Source of the DNA: an uncultured Poribacteria bacterium
GTDB taxonomy: Bacteria > Poribacteria > WGA-4E > WGA-3G
Assembly (NCBI GenBank): GCA_951813565.1
Contig: OX638351.1
Span: forward strand, 1,312,001-1,376,000
Length of the DNA: 64,000 bases
Reading direction: 5' to 3'
Below are positions 24,354-60,756 of the stretch, piece by piece (position 1 is the first letter of the stretch; each line of letters starts with the position of its first letter). The notes beneath the pieces are model-generated. The model made no database searches and was not told the DNA's origin. It was given only the letters and a program-made list of their open reading frames with translations. A program made the translations under genes and the position numbers.

Positions 24354-24748
24354 TGTAGGTTGGGTAGAGCGCAGCGAAACCCATAAATCGACGCTATGAA
24401 TGCCTGAATCAACGCCAAATGCGCCTGTGGCATTTGGCGGGTGTAAACTTAAGGATTTATTTCAGATTTCACACATTTTAACCCAAACAACACCGTAATC
24501 CGATTGTAGGGGCGGGTCTCCGGGGAATGCCAAAAGGCATTCGGACCCGGTGAATGACTAAATGTCGTTCATACCGTTGATTTCTTGATTTGGTGCCCGC
24601 CCGTTGTTTGAATACATTAGCAATGGCGGGGCACAGAGACCCCGCCAAATGCCAAAAAGCGCATTTGGCGTTGATTTGGCCCTACAAGGTTTGACGGGAA
24701 TTATCCACTAAATTGACGCCTATAGGTAGAGCACAGCGAAACCCAACA
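24354..24748. repeat. Deeply nested REP / MITE / micro-hairpin cluster
   Basis: REP GTAGGTTGGG..AAACCC; MITE ends GGTGTAAACTTAAG / CTAAATTGACGCCTATA; interrupted REP doublet GTAGGGGCGGG..CCCTAC; five hairpin+TTGATT units. Confidence 0.8.
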
Positions 24749-24815
24749 ACTGAATGCTAAAGTTGGTTTCTCGTTCGCTACGGAGTCTGTATTATAGAAA
24801 TACAAAATATTAATT

Positions 24816-27800
24816 ATGAAAAGCCTAACGCAAAAACGTTGCACTGGCTGTGGTTTTATGAACCCAGCAGTCAATTTTTGTGGTGACTGTGGTCGCGAAC
24901 TTGGTGACACAGACATACCAATCAGTGCAACCCCTATCAGCAAGGCAGAAAGACGACAACTGACAGTTTTGTTCTGCGATGTTATAGATTCTACTGCATT
25001 GACAGAACAGTTGGATCCAGAGGATTTACGACAAGTATTGGACTCATATCGTGAATCTGTCGCAGAGGTCGTTTTAGAATATGATGGACATATCGCGCGT
25101 TATTTTGGCGATGGTATCTTAGTATACTTCGGGTACCCGATTGCACATGAAGACGCAACGCGTCGCGCTGTACAAGCAGGATTGAAGATTGTTGCTGGAT
25201 TAGATAGTCTAAATTTTCGCTTGACAGAGATATTTGGTATTCAGATACAGGTGCGCCTAAGTATAGATACCGGTTTGGTAGTCGTATGGGAAGTAGGGAT
25301 GCCCATCAGTAAGTCAAGCGAGCGTATATTTTCTTTAGAACATTATCATGGCGATGCGATAGATATTGTCGGAAAAACGCCGAATATAGCCGCTCGCATG
25401 CAGCAAGTTGCGCCACCAAACGGTATCGTGGTTGGTGAGACTACGCTCAGATTGATTGAAGGACTTTTTACATATCAAGACTTGGGCACATTAGCACTGA
25501 AAGGAATTTCGCAACCTGTTCCGATTTATCAGATACTCGGTGAACATCCGGATAGTGCACTCCCAGATTTCAGACGCGAACAAGCAAAACTTCCACTACA
25601 AAGCAATGTGACGCCTTTAATTGGACGAACGCGACAGGTAGCAACCCTAAAAGCACGATGGAAACTCGCTGCAGCATCGTCAGGACAGGTCGTCCTAATT
25701 GAAGGCGAAGCAGGCATCGGCAAATCACGCATTGTTGCTGTTATCGCCGATCAGGTGACAGAAACTGATACACAAATATTAGAATGCCGCGGTTCACCGG
25801 ATTCACAAAATAGTCCACTTCACCCAATTCTATCGCTTTTGCGACAACAACTCTTACGGTTCGGTGAAATGGACACCGGAAGTACGCAGCTGCAAAAACT
25901 GGATCAGTTTTTAAATACCCACGAACTTTCACAAAATCTGCTCCCTCTGTTGGCAGAACTCTTAGAGATAGATGCGGACTACCGAACTTTGGATTTAAAA
26001 CCAGAGCAACGTCGCAGACGCACTTTACAAGCACTTGTCCAGATTTTCCTGAAAACTGCTGCACGAAAGCCACTTTTACTGATCGCAGAAGACCTACATT
26101 GGGCTGATCCATCTACTTTGGAGTTGCTGCATCTGTTAATCTCGCGGATTGAAACCGCACCGATCCTCGCAATTTTGACATCGCGTGCCGAGATGGGGGT
26201 TCATCAGGATAGCACACAAGCAGAAGGGAGAGTAAAACTTAAGACACTTGCTGAATTAGAATGGGGAACCGAAATATCGCTCAAACGTTTGAACCGTAGG
26301 CAGGTTTCACAAATGATTGCAGAAGTGGCAGGCGATCGGGCAATACCTACGGATGTGTCAAAACAAATTGCAGCGAAAACAGAAGGCGTACCGTTGTTTG
26401 TAGAAGAATTAACACGCATGGCACTTGAAGCCGACCTGCAAAACATTGATGTTTCAACAGAAATACCAGCAACACTACAAGCGTCGTTGACTGCAAGACT
26501 CGACAGACTCGGTTCGAGAAAAGAACTCGTTCAGCTTGGCGCAACACTGGGTAGAGAATGGACAGCAGAACTGCTATATAAGGTCGTAGCGAGTATTGTT
26601 GAAGAACCTGAAGAGGGTGAGTTTCTTGCACATCATGATCTGTTTGCTGCACTCCCTCCGTTTCCAGAACAGCAGAATGATCTCACATGGGTTAAAAAAG
26701 AATTACAGCAGCTTGTTGAAGCAGAGATCTTAAGGTGTCGACAAACCCATGAGAATAAACAAATTTATACTTTCAAGCATCCGTTGATTCGGGAGACAGC
26801 GTATCAAACACTGCTTAAAAGCACCCGACACGCGTATCACCGACGGATTGCCAATGTGTTACGGCAAGCATTTGGGGATGTTGTGCGGGCTCAACCGGAG
26901 TTAGTTGCATACCACTACACGGAGGGTGAACTTCCTGAGCGGGCTATTGAATTTTGGCAACAAGCAGGACAACGTGCGGTAGAACGATCCGCAAATGTTG
27001 AGGGCGTTCGTCATTTGACGCAAGGATTGACTCTATTAGACACATTGCCAGAAACCCCTGCACGCTCAGCACGCGAATTGGTAATTCAAACAACTTTGGG
27101 CCCCGCACTTATTGCAACAATGGGTTATGCGGCACTTGAGGTAGAGAAAACATATACACGTGCAAAAGCACTGTTGGAAACTATGCCGAATAATGAGCGC
27201 ATGCCACTCCGATTCCCGATTCTATTTGGACTATGGCTCTCCTATTTGGTACGGGCAAAGTTACAAACAGCACGAGAACTCGGAGAACAGTGTCTTGTGA
27301 TGGCGCAACAACAAGCGAGCACAGTATTGGAAGTAGAAGCACATCGGGCATTAGGTGCAACACTTTACTACCTCGGCGAGTTAAGAATGGCACACGCTCA
27401 CGTTGAAGCAGGAATCGAACGTTATGACCCACATCAACACCCAGTACATGCGTTTTTTCATTATCTTGCTGATCCAGGGATGACCCTGCGTTCTTACTCC
27501 GCTCCGTTAGTGTGGTGTTTAGGATACCCCGAACAAGCCTTAACGCAGCTACAGGCAGCACAGCAGATGGGTGAGGAACGACCACATCCGTTTAGTCAAG
27601 TGGTTTCCCTACATTTTGGAGCACTGTTATACCAACAACGCCGCGATGTAGAGAAGGTCAACACGTATGCTACAGAACTACTCGTTATTTGCCGAGAGCA
27701 CGGTTTTTCCGTGTGGGAACCAACGGGTAGAATAATGAAAGGTTGGGCACTTCAACAGGACGCTGGTAATACACACGAAGAAGGAATAGCTTTGATTCGA

Positions 27801-28310
27801 GAAGGAATTGCCGATTGGGAAGCCAATCGATCTCGTGTCCTACGGCCTGTTTACTTAGGGATATTAGCACAGGCTTGTGGTCAGGCAGGAAAGTTTCAAG
27901 AAGGGATTCAGGCAATTGAAAAAGCACTTGAAGCCGTCGCGGAAAGTGGTGAACGCACCAATGAAGCAGAACTCTATCGACTCAAAGGAGAACTTTTGCT
28001 ACAATCGGGTAGAGATTCCCTGTTAACTTGTCAAGCAGACGAGCAAAACGAATGTTCTTTGACACATCAACGTGAGGCAGAGACATGTTTTGAAAAAGCG
28101 TTGACTATTGCGAGGCATCAAGAAGCGAAATCGTGGGAACTCAGAACTGCTGTCAGTTTAAGCAAACTTATGATAACACAGAATCGGCATGATGCTGCGC
28201 ACGCGCTACTTAAACCGATCTATGAATGGTTCACAGAAGGATTTGAGACTACTGACTTGACAGAGGCACGTGACCTATTGGAAATCTTGAAAAGAGGTGA
28301 AACGCTATGA
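24816..28310 (+). CDS. Class III adenylate/guanylate cyclase fused to STAND/AAA ATPase and TPR region, with N-terminal zinc ribbon
   Basis: CTGC..CGDC; LFCDVIDST, FGDG, NIAARMQ; GEAGIGKS; EDLHWAD; FKHPLIRETAY; WFTEGFET. Confidence 0.9.
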   Translation: MKSLTQKRCTGCGFMNPAVNFCGDCGRELGDTDIPISATPISKAERRQLTVLFCDVIDSTALTEQLDPEDLRQVLDSYRESVAEVVLEYDGHIARYFGDGILVYFGYPIAHEDATRRAVQAGLKIVAGLDSLNFRLTEIFGIQIQVRLSIDTGLVVVWEVGMPISKSSERIFSLEHYHGDAIDIVGKTPNIAARMQQVAPPNGIVVGETTLRLIEGLFTYQDLGTLALKGISQPVPIYQILGEHPDSALPDFRREQAKLPLQSNVTPLIGRTRQVATLKARWKLAAASSGQVVLIEGEAGIGKSRIVAVIADQVTETDTQILECRGSPDSQNSPLHPILSLLRQQLLRFGEMDTGSTQLQKLDQFLNTHELSQNLLPLLAELLEIDADYRTLDLKPEQRRRRTLQALVQIFLKTAARKPLLLIAEDLHWADPSTLELLHLLISRIETAPILAILTSRAEMGVHQDSTQAEGRVKLKTLAELEWGTEISLKRLNRRQVSQMIAEVAGDRAIPTDVSKQIAAKTEGVPLFVEELTRMALEADLQNIDVSTEIPATLQASLTARLDRLGSRKELVQLGATLGREWTAELLYKVVASIVEEPEEGEFLAHHDLFAALPPFPEQQNDLTWVKKELQQLVEAEILRCRQTHENKQIYTFKHPLIRETAYQTLLKSTRHAYHRRIANVLRQAFGDVVRAQPELVAYHYTEGELPERAIEFWQQAGQRAVERSANVEGVRHLTQGLTLLDTLPETPARSARELVIQTTLGPALIATMGYAALEVEKTYTRAKALLETMPNNERMPLRFPILFGLWLSYLVRAKLQTARELGEQCLVMAQQQASTVLEVEAHRALGATLYYLGELRMAHAHVEAGIERYDPHQHPVHAFFHYLADPGMTLRSYSAPLVWCLGYPEQALTQLQAAQQMGEERPHPFSQVVSLHFGALLYQQRRDVEKVNTYATELLVICREHGFSVWEPTGRIMKGWALQQDAGNTHEEGIALIREGIADWEANRSRVLRPVYLGILAQACGQAGKFQEGIQAIEKALEAVAESGERTNEAELYRLKGELLLQSGRDSLLTCQADEQNECSLTHQREAETCFEKALTIARHQEAKSWELRTAVSLSKLMITQNRHDAAHALLKPIYEWFTEGFETTDLTEARDLLEILKRGETL

Positions 28311-29167
28311 GACTTGGTGTCGTTGGCATGTGCAGTGATTTCCGAACGCTGAATCAGGAAGAGATAGCAGCAATCCAGAAATTGCAGTTTACTGGAGTGA
28401 GTTATCATTTCGCGAGTGCAAATATTCCGCTTGTTTCACCAGATGAGATTACGCGATGTCGTCATTTGCTTGACAAAGCACAACTCGATTTGGTACAATT
28501 TGGTATTACCTATGGGGAGTGTCTGTTTGATCCGCGTCCTTCAGTACGCGAAGCAGCGATTGAAGCAGTAAATTGTGGAATGCCCGTGGCGAAAGAACTT
28601 GGCGCGTTTTTTTACTTATTTCGACCGGGCAGCTTGAACCCGGATGGCGCGTGGACATCTCACCGGGATAACCATTTGCCTAAATCAATGGAATGCTTAA
28701 TTGAGACGCTTAAACCTATCGCAGAAAATGCTGAACGTGAAGCGTTAACACTTGTCATGGAAACACACGCGGTATCTATTATGGGTTCACCTGAGATATG
28801 TAAAGAGGTCGTTGAGAAAGTTGGCTCTGACAGACTTCGTATCGTCATGGACTTTGTAAATCATTTCCAAACGCTTCGTCAGGTCTATGAAAGCGATGTG
28901 AGGCTCAACCATATTTTTGATGTTATGGGACCGGTTGCTCCTATGGCGCATGTTAAGGATATTCGTGTTGAAAATGGGTTAGTTTTACACCTCAATGAGG
29001 AGGTGCCAGGTGAAGGAGAATTGGAGTTGGGTGTCGCGTTGAAGCGTTTTGATGGACTTTATCCAGATGGCTATGGATTGATAGAGCACCTACCTTTGGA
29101 GAAAATTCCGCTTGCCAACGAAAATGTACGCAAAATTGCAGCTGAAAATGGGGTTAATATCTATTAA
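28307..29167 (+). CDS. Sugar phosphate isomerase/epimerase (TIM barrel, AP-endonuclease-2 like)
   Basis: MET, MDFVN, HVKD, PGEG, IEH motifs. Confidence 0.85.
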   Translation: MRLGVVGMCSDFRTLNQEEIAAIQKLQFTGVSYHFASANIPLVSPDEITRCRHLLDKAQLDLVQFGITYGECLFDPRPSVREAAIEAVNCGMPVAKELGAFFYLFRPGSLNPDGAWTSHRDNHLPKSMECLIETLKPIAENAEREALTLVMETHAVSIMGSPEICKEVVEKVGSDRLRIVMDFVNHFQTLRQVYESDVRLNHIFDVMGPVAPMAHVKDIRVENGLVLHLNEEVPGEGELELGVALKRFDGLYPDGYGLIEHLPLEKIPLANENVRKIAAENGVNIY

Positions 29168-29183
29168 TGAGAGGATTCGCATC

Positions 29184-31571
29184 ATGTTAAAGAAAAGACA
29201 AATAATATTGCTAATTCTCGTTTTAGGGATGGTCTTTGTGGCTTATGCCGCGATGGCACAGGAAGAAACTACCGGGGGCGATTTACAGGGTAGTGTGAAG
29301 AATATTTGGGACAAAGTGAAATGGCCTATTATTGCTGCCGTTTCAATGTTTATTTTCCAAGGTGTCCTTTATATAATAAGCTTGTTTAAGAAAGACAGAC
29401 TCCTTAAAACGCTGTTGAACAAGTATGTGATCTTTCATATGAAGGACGGACGCCGCTACCAAGGTACTATGCGTTTAGATACCAGAGGAGCAGAAATTGT
29501 TTCCGAAGAATCCAGACAACGCGGGCAAGCCCCAAGCTATATTTTTAGCAAGGATCAATTGCAGACTGAAATTGGCTCATATATCCGTTACTTAGATACG
29601 ATGAATGATCGAGAAAAGCAGGAACGGAAATGGGAACTTGATCGGTTGATTAATCCGCCACTTTCGCACAGAATGGTCCGAAAAATCCGAAATATGTTTA
29701 TTGAACTTAATACAGCGGCAAAAAATGCCATCAGCATGGTATGGGGTGGAATCAGACAAGCGGCAAGTCCCCTACAGGCACAGTTGAATCGAATAAATAC
29801 AGCAGCTAAAGAATTTGGAGGGGAAGCCGCATCATTTGATCAAGTGGATATTAAAGAACAATCAAAAGAATTCTTGCAAGAAGAAAGTTATGAGAGGATT
29901 ATTGAACGCCTCGTTGGTACACGTGTCAAAATCCGGATAAAGGATGTGAAACATGCCGACGGTGAATATATGGCACTTTTCAAAGATTACAACGGAAAGC
30001 ACATGACATTCATGAATGTGAGGGATAAGGACAATAACGGTTACAGAGACCATTGGGGTTACGATCACGAATACAAACACGATATCAATAATTTCAACCG
30101 ACGCGATGACCGAGGACTTAGGTGTCGAATGGTAGAGGACAAGCAAGGCAGATACTTTTTAGTCTTTGAAAACAATACTTCTTATACTATCCAAGTCGGT
30201 AAAATTCGACTGTTTGATCCAGGTGAATGGGGGAGAAACCTTGAATATAAATGGCATATTGAGGGGCTCAGTGTTAGAAGACTTCGCCTCAACCCAGTAG
30301 CACAACATAATGTCGGTCCGTTTGAACGTGTCAGAACACTCGAACCTCGCACGCCGAGGCAATTTAAAAAGATAGGAGTTGAATTTCGCTCTTTTCGAGA
30401 CGCGGATGTTATCTTTCCGCGTACTGTTTGCACTATTATTGAAAGTGCTGAAAAGCATCAAGAGGAATTGTTCAGTATATCTGCCTTAACAGACGCTATT
30501 CTTGACCGGAGTGAATCTGAAGAAATCGCGATCCAGGATTCGGAAGGACGACCAATTCACGGTATGAATCTCGTTCATGGATACGTTACTAATGTAAATG
30601 AAGAACGAATTGACCTAAAATCAATTGATTCCAGTTATAGCCGACGTTGGGAGGTAGAAAGTGCTTATACGCATTTTGATAATACCTTACGCCATCGAGT
30701 TCCTGCACATCGGAAGTTGATTCCGTATTTCGCGAACCGCCTTGTTACACAAAACGCACTCGTTGAACAGTTAAGGGAAAACAAACTACAGCAAGAGACA
30801 TTTTCTCAGTTAGCGTATCCTAAACTCGTCAAAAGACAGTTACGAGTTCCATTGATGAAGTTGTTACCTTCAAATAATGGATTGCGTCTACCACTTAAGG
30901 TGATGGCACTCACAGGCAACGTCACTCATGAAGAATTCCCTATCCTTGAACGTTTTGAATATGTTTTGGAACATCATATGCTATATGAATCTGTTAATAA
31001 CATACGGAACGACCGGCTCGCAAAAATGGACATACTATGGATAGGTGCGGGTGAAATTTACAAGGCAGGTTACCGCCTTAATATTGATGCTGAACACCGA
31101 ATCAAAAATTTCGTTAGCCAAGGTGGGGTTGTGATTGTTTCGGGACAAGACGTTAAGACAAACTCCAGACAGAGGCGCGGGACAGGATGGATTCCAGAAC
31201 CACTGACAGGTGTAGAATATGATGAAACAGATGAACTTTTGCCAACCGCTCAAGGTAGAAGAAGCCGTATCTTCCATACCCCAAATACGCTTAACACCAC
31301 ACCAGATACCAAAGAGATCCCATTAGTTAAGCTTGACGATATGTGGGTAGATCCGCTCGGTAAATGGAATTCACTCGCTAAGTCTACTGAGCAGGACGCC
31401 TCAGCATTGCTTACGCTACCGTTTCAGAAAGGGTTATATATTGTCACAAGTTTGAAGAATGAGACGGGCAGGGATGTAGAAATAAACAATAAATTGATGG
31501 AAAACCTACTTCATTTCTCTGTTAAGTGGATAGATAATCAGAAGTGGAAACAACGCTTCTTACCCCGATAA
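29184..31571 (+). CDS. Large membrane-anchored hypothetical protein (possible Sm-like folds plus C-terminal GATase1-like domain)
   Basis: Long ORF with GAGG RBS; signal peptide plus TM helix; fold guesses from motifs only. Confidence 0.6.
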   Translation: MLKKRQIILLILVLGMVFVAYAAMAQEETTGGDLQGSVKNIWDKVKWPIIAAVSMFIFQGVLYIISLFKKDRLLKTLLNKYVIFHMKDGRRYQGTMRLDTRGAEIVSEESRQRGQAPSYIFSKDQLQTEIGSYIRYLDTMNDREKQERKWELDRLINPPLSHRMVRKIRNMFIELNTAAKNAISMVWGGIRQAASPLQAQLNRINTAAKEFGGEAASFDQVDIKEQSKEFLQEESYERIIERLVGTRVKIRIKDVKHADGEYMALFKDYNGKHMTFMNVRDKDNNGYRDHWGYDHEYKHDINNFNRRDDRGLRCRMVEDKQGRYFLVFENNTSYTIQVGKIRLFDPGEWGRNLEYKWHIEGLSVRRLRLNPVAQHNVGPFERVRTLEPRTPRQFKKIGVEFRSFRDADVIFPRTVCTIIESAEKHQEELFSISALTDAILDRSESEEIAIQDSEGRPIHGMNLVHGYVTNVNEERIDLKSIDSSYSRRWEVESAYTHFDNTLRHRVPAHRKLIPYFANRLVTQNALVEQLRENKLQQETFSQLAYPKLVKRQLRVPLMKLLPSNNGLRLPLKVMALTGNVTHEEFPILERFEYVLEHHMLYESVNNIRNDRLAKMDILWIGAGEIYKAGYRLNIDAEHRIKNFVSQGGVVIVSGQDVKTNSRQRRGTGWIPEPLTGVEYDETDELLPTAQGRRSRIFHTPNTLNTTPDTKEIPLVKLDDMWVDPLGKWNSLAKSTEQDASALLTLPFQKGLYIVTSLKNETGRDVEINNKLMENLLHFSVKWIDNQKWKQRFLPR

Positions 31572-31598
31572 TTCCATCTGGATGCGATTTCTATAGTG

Positions 31599-31653
31599 AA
31601 TACAATAGGGTTATTGGTTGGCGAATCTATCCAACCAATAACCCTATTGTATT
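31599..31653. terminator. Perfect 23-bp hairpin between convergent genes (bidirectional terminator)
   Basis: AATACAATAGGGTTATTGGTTGG, 9-nt loop, CCAACCAATAACCCTATTGTATT. Confidence 0.8.
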
Positions 31654-34600: not shown

Positions 34601-34758
34601 GCAATACCACCTATCCCCCAAAGCAGATATGCCTGGATTTTCAACGAAAGTTTCCGATACCAAATCCCTCGCCGAAACCGGAAGATACCCCATATAAGGG
34701 TAATCGTGACAAGAATGACATTGAAAATTAGCCAAGCAATTGCAAGATCAGGACTCAT
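31654..34758 (-). CDS. UPF0182 family membrane protein
   Basis: LWF...Y, TREAFDL, IQLWD, DVDRY, THGYG, APFLDYDPDPY, NYIRNS, FYVEPVY. Confidence 0.9.
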   Translation of the reverse strand: MSPDLAIAWLIFNVILVTITLIWGIFRFRRGIWYRKLSLKIQAYLLWGIGGIALLSSMIPFSYLYTEHLWFVSVNYAEIFWKLRKIRWGLFFGFFFVALAFMNLNAVIAKRLCPEPREFSRWTHQRTVSFHRTFFISTILLAILFAIPMMSLQDIFIRYLERPTEKVEPFLLGKDRNFYLFSFPIHQAVSLWIEILLWVTCGVVGLLYNFYYRRDARSMGFVKRNIAFHGSALWLMLLAVNIWRIYVYLWGKVYTSPITDNLTELHGFFYMDFQLAGATWIYSAIIVSIGIAILINLFSRKRIVWYMAIGVWGLSYLTLIHVYPFVNHWWNVRTVELIKEGEYLKSHIQSTREAFDLNTIKEEVYNEELATLDMVNQNPDVVENIQLWDRQVLYNLLRADHRVKHHNFHRYTDVDRYRVGRPTISKSTQQEQAPTGRVGNNESAESVEIEASNEIDTETESTEQYRQVLIAAQEIDPDKVEGWRLQKLSFTHGYGVYVSPVNDIEGKNPIFWVKGVPHSEKKNETTESRVHYNEKYPELKVAQPWIYYGEMTYDYVIVNTTESEHDLEHKKKENGINNDENTTIPEGKKNKFHYGGTGGVRLGGWFRRLCFAIRFNTFRIFRNESLQPDSRLMFWRKIGTRHGKKMVTDRLSHIAPFLDYDPDPYIVINNGKLWWIVDFYVTSKHYPNAQFYEDDTSPTPDSNYVEPQFKRFKRFNYIRNSGVAVVNAYSGEVSFYAIKRNNEVITGAYHRAFPKLFKGLDEMPVGLQEHLRFPDYLTRIQAKIYGVYHVEEPEQFFDRGDRWHIPSEIYYSENPDQEMMPYYAMLKLPGEDQVEFVNMVPFTPETKEFNMKAWLVARCDPDHYGERIVYVLSDPEGVAGPKQVEADITNELADKVWAQNPKVRGNIQIFPIDGGIFYVEPVYLILANDSADDTSADPIKTRPKLREVFVAANRIASDTSFYEELKEIIVGENIDESNTDETPTDEKKEPTLSKQFEVLVKAVEEFGKALAAAENGNGQKAAPKNAAKKKKNQN

Positions 34759-34878
34759 AAGAAAAACCTCTTTTGGTTTTCGTAGGGAGTAGCATCAAGC
34801 AGTTAAGCAAGTTAACATATCTATCTCAACGCCGTAGTCCGTTTGGACACATTCCTATGCTGTGAAACGCTTTAATAT

Positions 34879-34907
34879 AGAATACCATCATTTTTAACCG
34901 ATGTCAA
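34879..34907 (-). promoter_or_regulatory. Sigma70-like promoter for the UPF0182 gene
   Basis: TTGACA, 17 bp, TGn-TATTCT on the minus strand. Confidence 0.55.
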
Positions 34908-49427: not shown

Positions 49428-49615
49428 TTAGCCTCAGCGGGGCGGAATGTTTATATTGTTATATGTCATTCCCGCTAAATGCTACACGCCAAATACCGGA
49501 AGCGCATTTGGCGTTGATTGGCAGTTTCAAACTGCGTCTAAAAAGATGGTGTTCACATGTTTTGGGATTTTCTATAAAAAAATGGGATTATTGGAGGTAA
49601 TAAAGAACAACATAA

Positions 49616-51049: not shown

Positions 51050-51125
51050 CTGATTTTAAAATCAATTATTTGGTTGAATTTGGTCAGTTGTTTTGAGCGG
51101 TGTGAAATTCAACAGGGTCAAATTT

Positions 51126-53057: not shown

Positions 53058-53069
53058 CAGACAAATAAG

Positions 53070-53326
53070 TGAGGGTGTGCATAAATAATTTCGATGTTAA
53101 ATATGCGCTTAAAGGTAGTCCGCACACGCCGTGGGTTTCCCACAAGTTCAAAGAGGCGCAGCATGCCACACGGGGAATGCCATAAGGCATTCGGACCGTT
53201 GATTTGGCGCATGCTGCGTTGATTTGGCAATGAATTGCGCGACTACAAACGCATTTCTATAAATCAAGTGGTACCTGGCGTTTGTCCCTGTCTGTGTTGA
53301 TGCGCCAAATATTTATGCACACCCCT
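53070..53326. mobile_element. MITE with GGGTGTG-type ends and 8-bp flanking repeat; contains REPs and two nested micro-hairpins
   Basis: GGGTGTGCATAAATA / TATTTATGCACACCC; CAAATAAG at 53062-53069 and 53327-53334. Confidence 0.8.
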
Positions 53327-53367
53327 CAAATAAGCTACGAACGTCCAAAATTCAGAGGCGGAGAGAT

Positions 53368-54747
53368 ATGAATACCATTCTTATTGTAGATGACGAAAAG
53401 AATATTCTGAAAATGCTTTCCCAAGGTTTAAGCATCAAAGGTTACAAAACCTTGACTGCAGCGAGTGGAGAAGAGGCGTTACAACTTTGTATGTCTGAGG
53501 ACATTGATCTTGTACTGTTAGATATTATGATGGAAAACGGCATAGATGGTATTGAAACGTTGACGAAATTACTTGAACAGCATCCTAATCTTAATGTCGT
53601 GATGATGTCTGCACAGCAGGATATTGAAATTGCTGTTAAAACATTGGAACTGGGTGCGAAACGCTACGTCACAAAGCCGATACGTATGGATAAAATTCTA
53701 TCCAATATTGAGCCGTTTTTAGAACTCGCGCGCTTAGCAAAAGAAAATGAAATACTTAAGTCCCAAATTGTAGTTGACGATGAAATGGTGGGTGAAAGCG
53801 CTGCCGTCTTCAAACTCCGCGCCGAAATTCGTCAGGTCGCATCAAGCGATCTTGGTGTGCTAATTTCTGGTGAAAATGGTACTGGTAAGCAGCTCGTTGC
53901 TAATGCAATACATAGATATAGCAAACGTTCTGACAACCCTTTTATTCCATTAAACTGCGCGGCGTTACCTGAAGAACTTGTTGAGAGCGAACTTTTTGGA
54001 CATGAACGAGGCGCGTTTACAGGTGCTGATTCTATGCGGCAGGGGCGGTTTGAACTGGCTGATGGCGGCACACTTTTCCTTGATGAAATAGGCGATATGA
54101 GTTTAAAAGCACAAGCAAAAGTGCTACGCGTGCTTGAATATGGAGAAGTGGAGCGGCTCGGAAGCCAACAGATTCGGAATGTGGATGTCCGAATCATCGC
54201 TGCAACTAACAAGGATCTTTCCGAAGAAATTGGGCGCGGGCAGTTCCGAACGGACCTCTATTATCGTCTCAAAATTGTTCCTATTGAGGTGCCACCACTA
54301 CGGGAAAGGTTAGACGATATCCCGATATTGGCGAAATATTTTGCTGAACGGCTACAGATGAATATGGCTTCTACACCGAAAACCTTTGCCGCGGAAGCAT
54401 ATCCTATTTTTCAATCTTATCGCTGGCCCGGCAACATCCGTGAACTCAAAAATATCGTTGAACGGCTACTCATCATGGTAAATCGGAAAATTATTTTGCC
54501 GACTGATGTTGCTGATGTCTTACCGATCAAAAAGAATGAAATGCAGATATTAGACGCTACAGCAGCTTATCAGTCGAATACGCCGCTGAGTACGATGGTT
54601 GATTCAGCCGAGGCACAATGTATTCTGGCAGCCTTGAAAGAGAATGATTGGAACATCCGTCGAACTGCCGAAGTATTGGAAGTAGAGAGAAGTAATTTGT
54701 ATAAAAAGATGAATAAATATAGTATTGCCCGTCCAGATTCAGGTTAA
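53368..54747 (+). CDS. Sigma54-dependent response regulator (NtrX/NtrC-like)
   Basis: Receiver domain; GENGTGK; GAFTGA; LFLDEIG; WPGNIREL; Fis-type HTH. Confidence 0.95.
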   Translation: MNTILIVDDEKNILKMLSQGLSIKGYKTLTAASGEEALQLCMSEDIDLVLLDIMMENGIDGIETLTKLLEQHPNLNVVMMSAQQDIEIAVKTLELGAKRYVTKPIRMDKILSNIEPFLELARLAKENEILKSQIVVDDEMVGESAAVFKLRAEIRQVASSDLGVLISGENGTGKQLVANAIHRYSKRSDNPFIPLNCAALPEELVESELFGHERGAFTGADSMRQGRFELADGGTLFLDEIGDMSLKAQAKVLRVLEYGEVERLGSQQIRNVDVRIIAATNKDLSEEIGRGQFRTDLYYRLKIVPIEVPPLRERLDDIPILAKYFAERLQMNMASTPKTFAAEAYPIFQSYRWPGNIRELKNIVERLLIMVNRKIILPTDVADVLPIKKNEMQILDATAAYQSNTPLSTMVDSAEAQCILAALKENDWNIRRTAEVLEVERSNLYKKMNKYSIARPDSG

Positions 54748-54941
54748 ATATTCATACGCAGTGGTAGGAGCGGTTTCCTAACCGCTCTGGGTCATATATG
54801 AAAACCGCATTCTACGCGCCGATCTCAGAAAATCTGTGTGCCGTTGTTTGGATAAGCCCGGTTCGGTTGGGAAACCGAACCTACCAGGGGCGGAGGTAAG
54901 TTACGCACTTGAGCTAAATTCACGTTAATTTGTATTATACT

Positions 54942-55096
54942 AACCTAAGTTGCTACGGACAAGATTTCAAGTTAGCAAACACTGCTTTTTACTGAAAAAA
55001 CAAGGCTTTTTCGCTGATTCTTATGTTTTTTGTTCTAAATCGGGGTTAGAAACCCCTCCTACAAGAGCATTTGCGAAATAGGTGGCAACTTGGGTT
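54942..55096. mobile_element. 155-bp MITE with 5-bp TSD, carrying a REP
   Basis: AACCTAAGTTGC / GCAACTTGGGTT; ATACT duplicated at 54937-54941 and 55097-55101; internal GGGGTTAGAAACCCCTCCTAC. Confidence 0.75.
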
Positions 55097-55141
55097 ATAC
55101 TATACCGATAGCCGATTGCTGAAAGCCAAAAGCCACAAAAT

Positions 55142-55561
55142 ATGAATGAAAACAGCGGCATGACCCGTATTCAACTTCTTATCTTGCTTGTAATTGTTAT
55201 TGTCATAGGAGTGTTCTCTTATCCGCCGTGGGCAGAATATCGCAAAGTTAGCCAAGCAGATGTAGATGTTGAAATGCTCGCCATAGCTATAAAGAAATAC
55301 TACAAACACACGCAGACGTATCCAGCAAATTTGGAGCAACTTGTAACCGATCCTGGCGTGGACGGTTGGCGCAGGACCTATCTAAAATCCGTCCCAAAAA
55401 CGCCTTGGGGTGGGAACTACGCGCTAATACAAGAGACCTATAAAGTCGGAATTGCGAAAAATCACCCGCGTGTACCAACAAAATATCAGATAGATGGGAT
55501 CGCTGAAATCAGCAGGGTTTATCACACGGACGCTGCACAAGGCGAAAAATACTGGTGGTAA
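55142..55561 (+). CDS. GspG-like pseudopilin
   Basis: Prepilin-like G|MTRIQLL followed by a hydrophobic helix; YP..LE.LV..P..W...YL..VP.TPWG..Y. Confidence 0.75.
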   Translation: MNENSGMTRIQLLILLVIVIVIGVFSYPPWAEYRKVSQADVDVEMLAIAIKKYYKHTQTYPANLEQLVTDPGVDGWRRTYLKSVPKTPWGGNYALIQETYKVGIAKNHPRVPTKYQIDGIAEISRVYHTDAAQGEKYWW

Positions 55562-55564
55562 TCT

Positions 55565-56368
55565 GTGGACGAAATCTGGATACAAATCATCATTTTTTTC
55601 TTAGGTTTAGCAATTGGCAGCTTTCTCAATGTCTGTATCTACCGCATCCCTCGCTCAGATATGTCTATTTATTCGCCGCGCCGCTCCTTTTGTCCTGAAT
55701 GTAATCAATCAATAAAGTTTTACGACAATATCCCGCTTCTGAGTTATCTGCTTTTACGCGGAAAGTGTCGGCATTGCAAAGCGAAAATATCTGTCCTCTA
55801 TCCGATAGTTGAACTCGTTACGGCAGTGCTATTTCTCGCGATGTCCTACCAATTTGGAAGGACACTTGATTTTCTGCATGCACTCATTTTTGTGTCTGTG
55901 CTGATACCAATTTTTGTCATTGATGCGCAACACTATATTATTCCGAATGTCATAAGCCTTACAGGATTGATACTTGGCTTGGGAATAGTGTGTACAATTG
56001 CTTATCATGGTAAAGATTTAGATTATCTAAAGATGCGACTCATTGGGTTTGTAGCAGGCGGTTTGGTGTTGTGGTTAATTGCGTTTATCGGTAGTGCAGT
56101 TATGCGTAAAAAGGCGATGGGTGGCGGAGACGTGAAACTCATGGCGATCATCGGATTGTTTCTCGGTGCGTGGCCAGAGTTACCAATGGTGATAGCGTTA
56201 TCTGCTTTCGGTGGTGCAGTTATCGGGACACTGCTGATAGTAACTGGCAGAAAAAGTCGACAAAGTCCAATTCCTTATGGGCCTTTTCTTGCTGGTGCTG
56301 CTGTGGTTGTGTTGCTGTGGGGCGATCCGCTCTGGGAGAAATACTTGCAATTGACTGGATGGAATTGA
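55565..56368 (+). CDS. pilD: Prepilin peptidase (A24)
   Basis: GSFLNVCIYRIP, CPEC..CRHC, ID, MGGGDVKL, PYGPFL. Confidence 0.93.
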   Translation: MDEIWIQIIIFFLGLAIGSFLNVCIYRIPRSDMSIYSPRRSFCPECNQSIKFYDNIPLLSYLLLRGKCRHCKAKISVLYPIVELVTAVLFLAMSYQFGRTLDFLHALIFVSVLIPIFVIDAQHYIIPNVISLTGLILGLGIVCTIAYHGKDLDYLKMRLIGFVAGGLVLWLIAFIGSAVMRKKAMGGGDVKLMAIIGLFLGAWPELPMVIALSAFGGAVIGTLLIVTGRKSRQSPIPYGPFLAGAAVVVLLWGDPLWEKYLQLTGWN

Positions 56369-56450
56369 CATAGTAGTAGACACACGTTGTGGTGCCATAG
56401 TCGTAATAGATAAAGTTATACAGTATAGTGGAATTAGTTTGTGATCTAAC

Positions 56451-56524
56451 AAGGAGGATTTTCATGGACGTAAAAGACGCAATACTTTCAAGACGTTCCA
56501 TTTTCAAATTCAAACAGGAACCCG
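56451..56524 (+). pseudogene. Duplicated RBS plus first 20 codons of the downstream nitroreductase gene
   Basis: 71 of 74 nt identical to 57272-57345; runs directly into the hairpin CGCTCCATCGGAGCG. Confidence 0.9.
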
Positions 56525-56613
56525 CTCCATCGGAGCGTTATGTCAATTTACACGTAAGTTGCTATCAGCATCTTCTAATGTAATAAATATTAGTGCTTTA
56601 GAGAAGAAATCCT

Positions 56614-57092
56614 ATGGCAAATACATATACCCAACTCTATATTCATGTTGTATTCGCTGTTAAAGGGAGACAGTCCCTCATTCCAAAACACCACAAAGAG
56701 GAACTTCACCAATACATCACGGGCATTATTACCAATAGAAGGCAGAAGTCATACAAATCAATTCAATGCCCGACCACATTCATATCCTTATAGATATGAC
56801 TCCAGATTGTAATCTTTCTGATTTAGTAAGAGATATTAAGGTGAGTTCAACAAAATTTATCAACAAAAACCGTTGGGTAGTAGGCCAGTTCAAATGGCAG
56901 GAAGGATTTAGTGCATTTACCTATTCACATTCTCAGTTGGGAGATGTTGCAAGATACATCCGAAATCAAGAAAAACATCATTCTCATAGAACATTCAGAG
57001 AGGAATATCTTGAGTTATTGAAACGTTTTGATATTGCTTACGATGAGAAGTATGTTTTTGAGGGTGTTGATGAGAATGCTCCAGAAACATAA
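56614..57092 (+). pseudogene. tnpA: IS200/IS605-family HUH (Y1) transposase, frameshifted near 56745
   Basis: MANTYTQLYIHVVFAVK in one frame; MPDHIHIL (HUH), WQEGFSAF, YIRNQEKHH in another; adding one A in CAGAAGTC restores the ORF; flanked by hairpins at 56523-56543, 57127-57150, 57171-57198. Confidence 0.88.
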
Positions 57093-57284
57093 TGTTCTGT
57101 TGGAATGAGGACAGTAAGTAGGTAACAACATACCGCTCCGCTGGAGCGGAGGAGAGTGCATAACATTTTTCTATAAACATATCGCTCCGCTGGAGCGACT
57201 GAATGTCTCTGATGCTATATGTAAAGGCTCTAATACTTTGCAACCAACCACCTAATAAACTATAATCCAAAAAGGAGGGATTTC

Positions 57285-57854
57285 ATGGACGTAAAAGACG
57301 CAATACTTTCAAGACGTTCCATTTTTAAATTCAAACAGGAACCCGTGCCGAACGATGTCCTTGAACAAATATTCAGTTACGGGATATGGGCACCGAATCA
57401 TCACGTTACAGAACCGTGGCGGTTTACCGTCATCGGCGAAAAAACGAAGTTGGTACTTGCGCAACGTTACCGAGAAATCAAGATGGAGGACACGCCAGAC
57501 CACGTTGATGCGGAAAATCTTGCCAAGATAGGCGAATTGGCTTACGAAAAATTTATGTCTAAGCCAACGATTATCGCTGTGTCCTGTGTCCAAGATGGGG
57601 ACGAACAACGGCAACGTGAAGATTACGCCGCTGCCTGTTGTGCAATGCAGAACGTCCAACTCGCTGCATGGGATGCAGGAGTCGGTATGCAGTGGAGCAC
57701 CGGCAGAATCACGATGGAAGAAAAGACCTATCAGTTGCTTGGAATAGATTCATCGCAGGAATACATTATCGGTTTTTTCTATACTGGTTATCCTGCAGAG
57801 ATTAAAGAACCGAATCGGAAACCTGCTGCTGAATTTATCCGCTGGGTTGCCTAA
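57285..57854 (+). CDS. Nitroreductase family protein (YdjA-like)
   Basis: SRRSI, WAPNH..TEPWRF, QN..LAA...G.G..W. Confidence 0.9.
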   Translation: MDVKDAILSRRSIFKFKQEPVPNDVLEQIFSYGIWAPNHHVTEPWRFTVIGEKTKLVLAQRYREIKMEDTPDHVDAENLAKIGELAYEKFMSKPTIIAVSCVQDGDEQRQREDYAAACCAMQNVQLAAWDAGVGMQWSTGRITMEEKTYQLLGIDSSQEYIIGFFYTGYPAEIKEPNRKPAAEFIRWVA

Positions 57855-57863
57855 ACCGATAAC

Positions 57864-58012
57864 CATAAGTGTCAACTTAAGGATATATTTTGTTGTAGGA
57901 GGGATTTTCAACTCCGATAAATCTGCATGCAAAGTAGTAGGCACACTCCGTGTAAACAAGATAAGGCGGACGGAGTATGCCTGCTACCTTTAGATCACTA
58001 TTGACACTTGTG
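57864..58012. mobile_element. MITE with CATAAGTGTCAA ends, filled with GTAG-REPs
   Basis: CATAAGTGTCAACTTAAG / TTGACACTTGTG; internal GTAGGAGGG.. and GTAGTAGGCACACTCCGT..ACGGAGTATGCCTGCTAC. Confidence 0.7.
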
Positions 58013-58018
58013 GGTGGC

Positions 58019-58855
58019 TTAAACTGATAGCTGATACGCAGTTTTTGCATTTTTCCAGAAGAACTTCGCCTTAACTTCATCGCCTTTTGGACTGAAGTAG
58101 TCGTTCACAATTTTTTGCACGACTTTATACTGTGCAAAACGTTCGGATACAGGCCAGTTGCTTCCGTAAATAAGTCTATCTTCACCAAACGCTTTCCATA
58201 AAACATCTATTGTTGGCGTGTAGTAGGCAACGTCTTCAGGGGCGGGAGTTTGTCCTGTATGCTCTGCCAAACCCGATACTTTACAGTAGACATTCGGATA
58301 GCGCGCAACTTCCTGTATGGTTGAAACCCATCCCGCATCGGGTGGATTACCATCGACTCGAACGCCAGCGATGTGGTTAATCACAACACGCATCGTTGGT
58401 GTATGTTCAACCAAGGCAGGCACGTTGCGTAATGCATCAGGGTTTATGAGCAGGTCTAAGGTGAGTTCCTTCTCAGCTAATTTCTCAATGTTCTTTAAGA
58501 AGTCAGCATCGCCGAGTGCTTGAAGATGACCGCCTCCGAGACGTATTCCTCGGAAAAGCGGATTGCCAGAAAACCGATTCAGGTTTTTCTCAAAGTCTGC
58601 ATCGTTAGGTGCTAAATTGCCAACGAACCCGACAATAAATGGTTCATTAGCCGCAAGGTCAAGGATCCATTGGTTGTCGTCAACCCACTTGCTTGCCTCA
58701 ACGACTACAGTTCCTGTTACGCCTTCAGGTACAGCGAGTTTTTTGTAATCGTTCGGCATAACGGTGCGGTAAAGTAAGTCATCATTAGGGTTTGGCCACG
58801 GCACACCTTCTGGTCGTGTCGGGTCATAAAAATGTGTATGTGTATCAATAATCAT
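58019..58855 (-). CDS. Amidohydrolase-2 family protein (L-fuconolactonase-like)
   Basis: IDTHTH, NH, CKVSG, FGEDRLIYGSNWPV; AAGGAG RBS. Confidence 0.88.
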   Translation of the reverse strand: MIIDTHTHFYDPTRPEGVPWPNPNDDLLYRTVMPNDYKKLAVPEGVTGTVVVEASKWVDDNQWILDLAANEPFIVGFVGNLAPNDADFEKNLNRFSGNPLFRGIRLGGGHLQALGDADFLKNIEKLAEKELTLDLLINPDALRNVPALVEHTPTMRVVINHIAGVRVDGNPPDAGWVSTIQEVARYPNVYCKVSGLAEHTGQTPAPEDVAYYTPTIDVLWKAFGEDRLIYGSNWPVSERFAQYKVVQKIVNDYFSPKGDEVKAKFFWKNAKTAYQLSV

Positions 58856-59758
58856 CAATACTCCTTTGTAAATACTGTAGGACAAGGTTTCCGTGCCTTA
58901 GTCCAGTTAGGTTTTCCCATTGTAGGACAAACTTCCTGTGTCTTAACGCTGTTATCCGTTCTACTGCTAACCTGTTTTCTATATGGATGTCCGGCTCCCG
59001 ATGAGGCACAACAGCAGCGGCGAGAACTCCAGCGCGATGCCTTAAAACTCAAAATGGGGCAAGAACTCAATCCCATTGATCCGGAGGGGCATGTTGCGTT
59101 AGGAAAAATCTATCATCAATTGGGTGAGCACGAGAAGGCGATAGAATCTTTTCAAACAGCAATTTCTCTTGACGAAAAACATCAGCATGCGTATAACAAT
59201 TTGGGTTTAATTTATATTGACCTCCGTCTATTTCTGCTGGCGATAGAAATGTTTCAAGCGGCGCTTGAAATTGAACCGGAGAACCCCGCTTTTTACAACA
59301 ATCTCGGCTATGCTTACGACATGTCGGACAGGTTTGATGAAGCACTGGAGGCTTATCGCAATGCCTTGGATGCCGACTCCGCGTTCGTGGATACCTATTA
59401 CAACCTTGCTGATGCCTATCTAAACCGAGAATCTTATCCAGAGGCCATTCAGTATTACAAAGCAGGTATAGAACTGGATGGTGGTGACGCGACAGTCTAC
59501 TTTAATATCGGTCTTGCATATCAAGAAACCGATGAACTGCTTAGTGCAATCCAAGCCTATGAAAAAGGTGTATCTCTGGATAGCGATGAGGTTGAGGCTT
59601 ACTATCGCCTTGCACTTGCCTATCAAAAAAAGGGTGATCACGTCATGATGCACCGTTATTTAGACACGTTTCTCAAAAAGGCTGAAGGTATCCATCGCTT
59701 TGAAAAACAATATCTCACTGCAAAGCGGATGCGTCAACAAGCATCGGGAGATAGGTAA
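58838..59758 (+). CDS. TPR repeat lipoprotein (start uncertain)
   Basis: Hydrophobic stretch plus LYGC lipobox-like motif; about 6 TPRs; the only in-frame ATGs overlap the divergent gene. Confidence 0.75.
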   Translation: MCINNHQYSFVNTVGQGFRALVQLGFPIVGQTSCVLTLLSVLLLTCFLYGCPAPDEAQQQRRELQRDALKLKMGQELNPIDPEGHVALGKIYHQLGEHEKAIESFQTAISLDEKHQHAYNNLGLIYIDLRLFLLAIEMFQAALEIEPENPAFYNNLGYAYDMSDRFDEALEAYRNALDADSAFVDTYYNLADAYLNRESYPEAIQYYKAGIELDGGDATVYFNIGLAYQETDELLSAIQAYEKGVSLDSDEVEAYYRLALAYQKKGDHVMMHRYLDTFLKKAEGIHRFEKQYLTAKRMRQQASGDR

Positions 59759-59762
59759 ACCT

Positions 59763-59999
59763 ACGTGAGTTCGGTGTCCAAGATATGAAGTTCTTAATGT
59801 TTTGAATTCTGCTCACATAACCACACTTTGTAGCACAAACTTTATGAAGATTAATTTATTAATTCGGTAATTTTCTGTCCGCACAAGGCAGGTGTACCCA
59901 CCTGCTGGCGAGGTTTCCTAACCTCACAAAATTACCGGTTTATTTTCTTAAACTTCATAAAGTTTGCGCTACAAAAAATTGTTTATACCGAACTTACGT
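59763..59999. mobile_element. Composite MITE with 7-bp TSD; contains a REP and an inner MITE (59844-59958)
   Basis: ACGTGAGTTCGG / CCGAACTTACGT; TAAACCT duplicated at 59756-59762 and 60000-60006; inverted relative of 43610-43896. Confidence 0.85.
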
Positions 60000-60046
60000 T
60001 AAACCTATAAGTTGGGTTTCGCTATCGCTCACTCATAAATCAACGC

Positions 60047-60642
60047 TGTGAAATCCCATCGATTATTCAGAGAGGGTTCGGATAAGCCTTTCCGCATAGC
60101 CGTTCTCCCAAGGGACACCCTCTGTGTGCCAACGAAATCTCAATTCCATAGCGGGTGAGTGTTGAAATATAGTCGGTTGATAATAGAGATTGCTTCGGTT
60201 GAAACCGAGTGTGTTACAAATCTGTCGCACTGAGTAATTGGTTCTCAAAACCTCTACTATTCCTCGTTTTTCATCTGGAGTCAACCCAGCCATGTTGAGA
60301 CTTTTTTTAGATGTCCAATTCCAGGGTCAACTTGCCAACGAGTTGCTCAAGTTGGGTAATTCGCTGTTGATAGGCATTGGTCTGTTTATCAGCAGGTTCA
60401 AAGAGTGTCGCCGTGTTATCAAGGAAGTGGCGTTTCCACCTTGTGAGTTGTTTTTTGCAGAGGTTATGTTGACGTCAGAGTTCCGCTTGTGAACTCTGAC
60501 CGCTAAGGGCCTCAATAACAACTTCAACCTTAAATTCGGAGTAAACTTTCGTCGTTTTGCCATCGGAAACTCCTTTCAATTATATTGTTATTATACCACA
60601 ATGTTGACTTAGAAAGTGGTCTGAAATTCCGATGGCAGTACA
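60047..60642 (-). mobile_element. Degenerate, internally deleted IS3-family element
   Basis: TG-start end at 60642; orfA MAKRRKFTP(E)FK... with a frameshift and stops; orfB fragments YSVRQIC..LG and PWENGYAERLIRTL; left boundary uncertain. Confidence 0.75.
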
Positions 60643-60756
60643 TGGCGTTGATTTGGCTGAATGCCAAAAGCGCATTCATAGCGTTGATTTAGGTTTCACG
60701 TTGTTCAATCCAACCTACAGGTTGTTTATATCGAAAACCGACAAAGAGACATTTTA

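Follow-up and report, generated by a model that had tools for sequence, protein, structure and literature searches.

The small dispersed repeats (SDRs) of cyanobacteria are said to be 21-27 nt long, to show compensatory stem changes and to nest in one another, and retroposition was reportedly proposed for them earlier. SDR1-8 of Nostoc and relatives are reportedly the subject of Elhai et al. 2008 (Genome Res 18:1484). SDR5, put at 21 nt in a part of PMC13756078, inserts precisely into the palindromic HIP1 according to a passage of PMC4390886, and SDRs are also treated in sections of PMC2884548. How repeats of fewer than 40 bases spread in bacteria is described as an open question for REPs in part of PMC8266576, and likewise for CGTC repeats in part of PMC3733652. 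Here we describe a family of hairpin-plus-tail units in sponge-symbiont Poribacteria that is real and is followed from one window (the whole stretch of DNA analysed, 64,000 nucleotides, numbered from its first base) to its source genome and genus.

The unit and its copies

A genome-wide scan of the source genome found 676 hairpin-plus-tail units at a score of 9 or more, compared with 5 in a control scan of the reversed genome; 562 of them have the top score, so the genome holds at least that many intact units, grouped into 470 arrays. Most arrays (410/470) consist of one intact unit and the remainder are direct tandems, with lengths among the 562 of 34 nt (n=259), 35 nt (n=236), 36 nt (n=60) or other (n=7). 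The unit folds into a strand-specific hairpin with a 10-11 bp stem and a bulge, its 5' end lying at the stem foot. The tail 3' of the stem does not pair and is invariant: GTTGATT followed by 1-2 bases. This tail and an AAT/ATT core are kept throughout the genus, and within the window the tail 8-mer occurs 14 times (shuffled mean 3.7; 14 or more in 0 of 100 shuffles). Covariation of the stem arms, already proposed in the preliminary description, holds: over 20 arm variants 94.5% of cells are paired, a figure inflated by the choice of these rows for pairing, and 16 cells are changed on both sides, with 0 of 500 shuffles as high and slid controls at 23-45% paired. The folded strand is the tail-3' strand, on which there are 91 G-T wobbles versus 25 A-C mismatches (35 versus 14 among distinct types, p 0.004). 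Not counting nested copies and those on the reverse strand, tailless hairpins are rare; double-tailed inverted forms occur.

The unit pattern was present in all 40 genus genomes searched, with 0-1 matches in each of 16 genomes of other families; in a collection search, 79 of 80 among the matches listed were titled Poribacteria. Viral contigs gave six matches, none of them the canonical unit by eye, and an Rfam search of 24200-25000 returned nothing near gathering score. Assignment as a CRISPR repeat was rejected, as the three arrays found have other repeats and unit tandems lack spacers.

All 11 copies first noted in the window are present where they were placed (Table 1).

Table 1. Units, hosts and neighbouring features in the window
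Feature	Position	Strand	Remarks
3' half of older unit	24385..24405	-	loop received the 24406..24438 copy; at edge of GTAG-tagged REP
Full unit, GCCAAATGC arm type	24406..24438	-	short tail ending TTGATTC; lead C at 24439
Composite	24522..24592	+	outer GGGGAATGCC-type unit in GTAG REP loop; inner unit interrupts stem foot
Inner 36-nt unit	24549..24584	+	bulged type; G-T wobble in stem; tail ending TTGATTTC
Full 35-nt unit	24644..24678	+	precise at C^G of inverted GTAG REP
Unit, tail one base short	49488..49520	+	removal gives back 19-nt palindrome
Outer unit, GCAGCATGC type	53158..53226	+	at C^G of REP; loop holds inner unit
Inner 35-nt unit	53172..53206	+	precise at C^G within outer unit's loop
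Unit tail remnant	60036..60046	-	cut off by left end of IS3-like remnant
IS3-like remnant, outside the family	60047..60642	-	NF033516, E 4e-6, below cut-off
Unit 3' remnant	60643..60655	+	cut off by IS end; tandem with next unit
Full 36-nt unit	60656..60691	+	last of tandem pair; inverted GTAG REP next
Intact empty GTAG REP	60777..60801	+	same family as the 24522 host

The claim that removing a unit restores the host palindrome was confirmed at 24644, where empty paralogs of the host site with long flanks exist, and at 49488, although a genome search found no paralog of the restored palindrome. At 24522 it needs correction, since the comparison REP at 60777 has T in place of the C of filled copies; genome-wide, the lead position of this REP type is T in 106 cases and C in 4. 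Within the 24522 composite, the outer unit lost its own G at the 24549 junction, so that excision there does not give back the outer unit, and the would-be empty form of this site has 0 copies in the genome. The 24384 unit lacks its 5' half, and the complete nested form is present elsewhere in the genome. For the REP hosting the 53158 unit, a cognate RAYT was seen in genome G045 (L065).

Empty and filled sites, junctions and hosts

Orthologous empty sites support the earlier proposal of a very small, single-hairpin unit that moves without target duplication. At three alignable coding loci we counted 45 empty versus 8 filled sites: 18 and 4 in an ISAs1 transposase gene (22 aligned of 24 examined), 17 and 2 in a lipoate-ligase-like gene (19 aligned of 20), and 10 and 2 genomes for an ABC permease (14 loci examined). 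Two of the three insertions are in frame, the unit (33-36 bases) adding 11-12 residues to conserved proteins and persisting across species. The filled ISAs1 copies share one bond in a non-palindromic gene, yet a single clade of them is rejected (p-AU 0.00013); they need four changes on the tree, at least two of them forced by strongly supported branches, and this bond was hit repeatedly. The unit is thus among the smallest DNAs with evidence of mobility.

Eight sites with unique flanks were compared with relatives. Three gave clean empty/filled pairs. At another, relatives were empty and the filled copy had lost about 8 additional bases, in a hairpin loop. Of the rest, two were occupied in all or most of the relatives that could be aligned, and two failed to align. 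For the window, orthologous intergenic spacers of other species were not alignable at 24276-24816; one metagenome contig, 99% identical, had three of three sites filled and hence showed no within-species presence/absence, and contigs of four runs broke at the repeats of a 20-kb region and were uninformative on this point. Two contig joints that skip units have sides of only 21-25 bases and were left out of the count.

These data also bear on the idea that the units derive from a larger catalogued IS or MITE, as its ends or through its decay, or are not mobile alone. It draws on the two partial units at 60036 and 60643, which abut the two ends of the IS3-like remnant, on the double-tailed inverted forms, and on the many copies spread within larger composite repeats; indeed, much of the copy number arose as host repeats were copied with a unit already within. 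At the same time, the sequences flanking ten other copies of the remnant's right end are unrelated, the spacing of outward-facing tail pairs does not peak at IS size, and the unit does not form the gene's own ends at any of 115 Y1/RAYT loci. Unit-exact insertions in orthologous coding DNA contradict the idea directly, leaving it barely credible.

Precise, duplication-free insertion at C^G is shown for the main class. To say that insertion is always at C^G would be an overstatement, as the clean junction (lead C plus TG|G) is found in 229 of 470 arrays; where the empty site is known, the non-clean arrays have mostly lost 1-3 target bases. This second junction class has the lead C in place of a T. 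No duplication was seen at orthologous sites, and junction bases proved non-random when 37 de-duplicated site types were compared with intergenic CpG sites as background, giving the consensus A-Y-C-C^G-notG: A at -4 in 22/37 (background 0.315), Y at -3 in 30/37 (0.50), C at -2 in 25/37 (0.215) and a base other than G at +2 in 37/37 (0.785). Every insertion places the unit's initial G next to the target C and so restores a C^G 5' of the unit, consistent with the head-to-tail arrays.

Units sit inside their own loop and foot, in feet and loops of REPs, and in coding DNA. A repetitive flank adjoins 416 of 470 arrays (31-42% background), hosts include REPs of at least nine RAYT types of the genus, and hotspots lie at the stem feet and in the loops of numerous repeats that are unrelated to one another. 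The picture of a hyperparasite of REPs therefore stands insofar as units nest in REPs and in themselves; it is not an obligate or REP-specific habit, however, as ordinary coding DNA is also entered, at sites not near any REP.

At the 3' junction, the base following the tail tracks the tail variant (among 562 units, TG precedes G in 337, CA precedes C in 85, TC precedes T in 36 and CG precedes C in 30), which suggests microhomology joining. Host replication or repair might copy the unit by template switching with no dedicated transposase: a 3' end that had stalled at a hairpin, or been nicked there, would jump to a unit, copy stem and tail, and return at 1-3 nt of microhomology. The variable 3' junction with its 1-3 lost bases and matching next base, the hotspots in unrelated repeats, the loss of about 8 bases in a hairpin loop and the lack of a cognate enzyme gene at the 115 Y1/RAYT loci all favour such copying. 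The sharp 5' end (lead C in 429 of 470 arrays), the rarity of tailless hairpins and the repeated hits on one bond of the ISAs1 gene do not, and the constancy of the unpaired tail and the AAT/ATT core throughout the genus points to recognition by a protein; we consider template switching unlikely, though of some weight.

Which machinery could move the unit

Under our preferred reading, to which we give a probability of roughly 0.45, the unit is a single-strand element that is not autonomous and depends on HUH/Y1 chemistry supplied in trans. This mobile element of 34-36 nt, spread through the genus, would travel as single-stranded DNA: an HUH (Y1) tyrosine transposase working in trans would cleave it at its two ends and link it to a single-stranded target that carries a nick. 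The most plausible enzymes are one or more of the genus's many RAYTs; the second junction class may reflect insertion at RAYT nicks in a host REP followed by end clean-up. We infer the HUH/Y1 mechanism from the lack of duplication and the 5' tetranucleotide preference, which resemble IS200/IS605 chemistry (as outlined in part of PMC3201880), and from the E. coli TnpA-REP cut site, CC^T within CTAC of inverted REPs in a passage of PMC3333891, whose register is shared by at least five T-class host sites here. That the hosts are REPs of at least nine RAYT types of the genus also favours it, as do the strand-specific fold and the empty and filled orthologs. Against it stand the failure to find an enzyme, a unit with neither GTAG tag nor guide 5' of the stem, the tracking of tail variant by next base, coding targets away from REPs, and the three of three filled sites in the 99%-identical contig, which gave no within-species presence/absence. 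Moreover, a single-bond HUH exchange alone deletes no target bases, which also counts against this reading.

IS608-type insertion prefers the lagging template (stated in a section of PMC3333891); here, arrays divide 157 versus 163 and 113 versus 126 by replication strand, on a contig whose GC skew is weak and changes sign.

The HUH/Y1 gene bounded by the unit that the preliminary description had looked to was not found: 0 of 115 Y1/RAYT loci examined, which are part of the genus's Y1 loci, use the unit as their own end, and in the 16 that hold a unit it lies inside a host repeat or a second unit. Searches with PF01797 (10 matches in the genome; genus also searched) and NF047646 (genus) gave no cognate gene, and a home-built Y1 profile run over all genome frames added only two weak matches (E ~0.4). 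In one genome we found no IS110 and no Ku, and an IS91 Y2 search gave 0 matches, a result made uninformative by controls that gave no match either. Absence of an enzyme from a genome is weak evidence, because cognate RAYTs are missing from REP-carrying genomes too.

The unit could instead be moved by a dedicated enzyme, a single-strand recombinase or nuclease not so far recognised, whose gene lies apart from the units and escaped the profiles tried. The clade restriction of the unit, its invariant tail and the lack of a cognate gene among known families point that way; no candidate gene emerged, the 34 genes with units on both sides being ordinary-looking by N-terminal sequence, and we regard this, too, as unlikely.

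Alternatively, the unit could be a small RNA from which a reverse transcriptase makes DNA, with a nick in the target as its primer. The strand-specific fold with G-T wobbles suits RNA as well as single-stranded DNA, and a fixed 5' end, ragged T-rich 3' end and microhomology resemble target-primed reverse transcription. Yet an RT domain was found in 18 of 40 genus genomes and not in the high-copy G006, G017, G048 and G049, and there is neither orientation bias to flanking genes (157 sense versus 130, p 0.12) nor an excess in convergent spacers, making such retroposition quite improbable. Cas1 occurs in 28 of 41 genomes, including families without units; neither RT nor Cas1 tracks unit copy number. 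A terminator role was rejected on the same lack of strand bias and of convergent-spacer excess.

A further version has the unit as a self-guided 34-nt single-strand transposon riding the RAYT enzymes of other repeats or an undescribed enzyme, with the invariant G-T-T-G at the stem's 3' foot as guide. Combined with the IS608 cross-pairing rule (as given in part of PMC3201880) and G-T wobble, this guide predicts A-Y-N-Y before the cut, and A-Y-C-C/T is observed, a match spotted post hoc with the data known. Such a guide would sit across the hairpin from its place in all described cases, and we hold this version to be rather improbable. If true, it would provide a minimal programmable insertion unit adding 11-12 in-frame residues to proteins.

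The family offers hundreds of copies, exact empty/filled orthologs, repeated hits at one bond and a target consensus that can be measured. With few RAYT clades as candidates, how such short repeats spread is testable by oligonucleotide cleavage assays. A single enzyme able to insert so small a hairpin-tagged cargo without duplication, if there is one, would be a very compact insertion system.

Comparison with described systems

The family was at first not recognised as a described one, and our literature searches found no description of the Poribacteria hairpin family; its kind, on the other hand, is not unprecedented, given the SDRs. MITEs differ in that the unit has a one-sided tail, no terminal inverted repeats and no target-site duplication at orthologous sites.

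With IS200/IS605 the unit shares the lack of target duplication, a 5' base preference and a strand-specific hairpin (parts of PMC3201880 and PMC3333891). In the portions of those accounts used here, however, the elements have separate left- and right-end hairpins with 5' guides, whereas the unit has one hairpin and a loose target, and its second junction class deletes bases; insertion at a short target word is loosely matched by the main class and not by the base-losing one. The left ends of five resident IS605-type copies are unlike the unit.

CGTC REPs, as portrayed in part of PMC3733652 (Di Nocera et al. 2013), are likewise tagged palindromes with no transposase gene beside them and with intragenic copies. 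The unit's tag is not CGTC, TGTC or CCTC, its stem is 10-11 bp with a bulge versus 8-9 bp, and it forms direct tandems and nests versus head-to-head dimers.

GTAG REPs and the REPIN-RAYT system resemble the unit in size, copy number, imperfect hairpin, intergenic location and probable single-strand processing (parts of PMC8266576, PMC3333891 and PMC3116915), and the published CC^T cut of inverted REPs falls exactly at some of the unit's insertion points. By consensus, the unit nevertheless has no GTAG-type tetranucleotide 5' of the stem on either strand, and has invariant unpaired bases 3' of it; orthologous single-unit insertions indicate movement as a single hairpin and not as an inverted doublet. 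At the 115 loci, none of the RAYT genes has the unit at its borders, and REPs are its hosts.

The closest kind would seem to be the cyanobacterial SDRs. The unit is longer (34-36 nt versus 21-27 nt), belongs to another phylum, and has RAYT-type REPs and coding DNA as hosts. Both are very small, dispersed, one-clade repeats that enter a palindromic target precisely and have no known mobiliser, and the compensatory structure, self-nesting, clade restriction and empty/filled sites ascribed to SDRs are all found in the Poribacteria unit.

The hairpin unit, its fold and its distribution

The unit, a hairpin with an unpaired 3' tail, is a real, genus-specific and very small mobile element. All 11 copies claimed for the window in the preliminary description were located at their positions, and the tail 8-mer occurs there 14 times against 3.7 expected, with 0 of 100 shuffles as high. 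A hairpin-plus-tail scan of the 5.43-Mb genome returned 676 units at a score of at least 9 (5 in the reversed-genome control), 562 of them with the top score, which is a lower bound for units since interrupted copies come on top. These 562 units, 555 of them 34-36 nt long, form 470 arrays of one or more adjoining intact units, 410 being single units. In the consensus, the lead C (the base directly 5' of the unit) is followed by G, three bases that vary, the core AAT, a loop with a one-base bulge, the complementary arm and C-G; the unpaired tail is TTGATT with one or two further bases.

Among 20 arm variants, selected for pairing, five of the 11 stem pairs show changes in both partners, amounting to 16 cells, a level that 0 of 500 shuffles matched, and a control with slid partners gave 0-1. 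At one locus with orthologous old copies, the interspecies differences are compensatory pairs. When the strand carrying the tail at its 3' end is read, G-T pairs are more frequent than A-C mismatches (91 vs 25; 35 vs 14 distinct types, p 0.004), and therefore this is the strand that folds. Rfam returned nothing for window positions 24200-25000. A terminator role is argued against by the lack of orientation bias relative to genes (157 vs 130) and of any excess in convergent spacers.

A relaxed unit pattern matched in all 40 genomes of the genus, with 43-788 matches per genome (8-28 in a backward control), and a stricter one in 24 of 24 genus relatives, with 0 or 1 match in each of 16 other-family genomes. 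A genome-collection scan found at least 122 stretches with the unit; among the 80 matches listed, 79 were titled Candidatus Poribacteria and one uncultured bacterium. Viral contigs gave six matches to the unit pattern, none of them, as judged by eye, a canonical unit. Sponge metagenomes were among the runs containing window sequence.

Empty and filled sites

Within this genome, 157 of the 470 arrays have an empty paralog (the site without a unit) with 24 matching bases on each side. Orthologs in coding DNA are the stronger test of mobility, and the proposed check for empty and filled orthologous sites revealed both states among relatives at three coding genes. At the unit site of an ISAs1 transposase gene, 22 of 24 loci could be aligned, 18 of them empty (C-G in 5, T-G in 11, other in 2) and 4 filled. 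For a lipoate-ligase-like gene 19 of 20 loci aligned, 17 empty and 2 filled, the filled relatives carrying a 36-base in-frame insertion common to this genome; in an ABC permease gene the alignment covered 13 of the 14 loci, with 10 genomes empty (counted by genome, as two rows are one locus), 2 filled and a 33-base in-frame gain. At the protein level (G000:C1:4511629 and 1292616 in this genome; loci L321, L342) this is +12 residues in the lipoate-ligase-like protein and +11 in the permease, retained in three species each.

A tree of 20 ISAs1 flanks requires four changes to account for its five filled copies, one of which sits on a long branch; at least two changes are imposed by branches with strong support, and a single group of all filled copies is rejected (p-AU 0.00013). 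For each of two filled lineages the closest relative is an empty C-G copy (96.5% and 92.8%), and the units inserted in them are distinguishable by loop or arm. Such recurrent insertion could be mimicked by gene conversion among IS copies, and the filled label clusters on the tree no more than in shuffles. The gene contains 59 CpG sites, and units were observed nowhere else in it.

In a 99%-identical contig 3 of 3 orthologous sites are filled, and two more unit sites are filled in most or all alignable relatives, which counts against current activity. One orthologous unit on that contig (L225:9080-9115) differs by three bases in loop and arm between identical long flanks, possibly through gene conversion among units. 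An old orthologous unit common to six species (G000:C1:3310560; loci L379-L383) has a loop that grew differently in each, in one case as a nested degenerate unit.

Host repeats and junctions

Repetitive sequence flanks 416 of the 470 arrays, compared with a background of 31% for intergenic positions and 40-42% for CpG sites between genes. The earlier view of the unit as a parasite of REPs (palindromic repeats) is upheld to that extent, but has to be widened, as insertions also lie in coding DNA at three genes. The host REPs represent at least nine types of RAYT (REP-associated Y1 transposase), each of which occurs next to its cognate enzyme in some member of the genus; loci L031-L070, L248-L287 and L414-L438 hold at least nine such types, each with its own REP alongside. 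The flanking repeats of one RAYT type of the genus are 5-bp hairpins that carry a 3' tail instead of a GTAG tag. Insertion points vary in position (stem feet, loop entries, loops), and several are CC^T within CTAC of inverted REPs. E. coli TnpA-REP cuts in vitro at this same place (PMC3333891), a coincidence noted by position. Shared flanks extending past the REP show that many copies spread within larger composites, and double-tailed hairpins most probably arose when two units lying back to back in the same REP were joined by a deletion.

Insertion is polar and has a target preference. The 5' junction is sharp, with C directly before the array in 429 of 470 cases; 30 arrays have G there, most of these being remnants of tandems, and 11 have T. 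Duplication-free insertion at C^G, as previously claimed, is exact in the main class (lead C, tail TG, then G; 229 of 470 arrays) but not in the remaining endings (C-A-C, T-C-T, C-G-C, T-A-T and rarer forms), where comparison with their empty families shows the lead C replacing the first target base and 1-3 target bases lost. Empty copies of one REP, for example, have T in 77 cases and C in none, those of another 95 vs 2, and the permease site has T in 10 of 10 empty genomes. The permease site is a wobble position, so that T may have changed to C there earlier; for one REP host, the version next to the RAYT gene of another species has the C form, so that some replaced-base cases may be ancestral C alleles.

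Tabulated as had been suggested, the junction bases proved non-random: the main class, pooled with relatives and de-duplicated, gave 37 site types with the consensus A-Y-C-C^G-notG, all positions being enriched relative to intergenic CpG (p between 4e-4 and 2e-9, optimistic values given the common REP ancestry of site types). Which base follows the tail goes with the tail variant, as expected if donors with 1-2 bases of flank were joined by microhomology, or if few founder events were amplified along with their hosts. Host-repair template switching, which could also spread the unit, seems rather unlikely to us. Arrays show no bias with respect to replication strand, as judged from a weak skew signal.

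Candidate enzymes and known systems

To our knowledge a 34-base double-stranded circle is implausible and, together with the strand-specific hairpin and its 5' target word, this points to single-strand HUH chemistry with a Y1 enzyme in trans. We tentatively favour such an enzyme, which would move the unit as a single strand, with a probability of roughly 0.45. TnpA genes of the IS605 type number five in this genome, as do RAYT-like genes, of which two are broken. The search for a HUH/Y1 gene flanked by the unit came up empty: 16 of the 115 Y1/RAYT loci examined in the genus hold a unit, always inside a host repeat or another unit, and 0 of 115 are bounded by it. IS110 and Ku, looked for in this genome, were not found. 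Reverse transcriptase (RT) is present in 18 of 40 genomes and Cas1 in 28 of 41, and neither tracks unit copy number. A dedicated enzyme outside the recognised families is an unlikely mover, and retroposition we regard as improbable.

Other features of the window and genus were recorded alongside. Between the partial units at 60036 and 60643 lies an IS3-like remnant, which is a later arrival because its right end recurs in ten further copies whose flanks are unrelated. The broken Y1/RAYT gene of the window is bracketed by an 81-base direct repeat, one copy on each side, that matches the start of a nitroreductase-like gene at 57285, and intact relatives are followed by the same neighbour. At G009:C1:783886 and at least seven other places, a Y1 transposase gene present in many copies is split over two frames. 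An RT gene adjoins cas1 and a CRISPR array at G000:C1:3989138-3996420 of this genome, and four compared genomes (G055, G015, G016, G050) are rich in long frames with an RT domain; these lie mostly on small contigs and may represent retroelements of the host that ended up in the genome bins.

Features recorded in the window
Feature	Position	Strand	Remarks
IS3-like remnant	60047-60642	-	internally deleted, frameshifted; longer relatives ~10x in genome
IS200-like Y1/RAYT gene, broken	56620-57060	+	frameshift and stop; own hairpin repeats alongside
Three tandem paralogous genes	4735-7265		~260 residues each
Gene with seven internal repeats	2922-4706		

On the features tested, the unit falls outside the GTAG REPs (PMC8266576, PMC3333891, PMC3116915), the CGTC REPs (PMC3733652) and the IS200/IS605 derivatives (PMC3201880, PMC3333891). 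It likewise falls outside the MITEs on the features tested, and a literature search, with most subscription journals outside its coverage, found no description of the hairpin-unit family. Small dispersed repeats of Nostoc were reportedly described by Elhai in 2008. By description, partly second-hand in PMC4390886, PMC13756078 and PMC2884548, these repeats are the system that the unit works most like. The kind of element is already known but unexplained, and the unit now adds to it ortholog-level evidence and a testable target rule.
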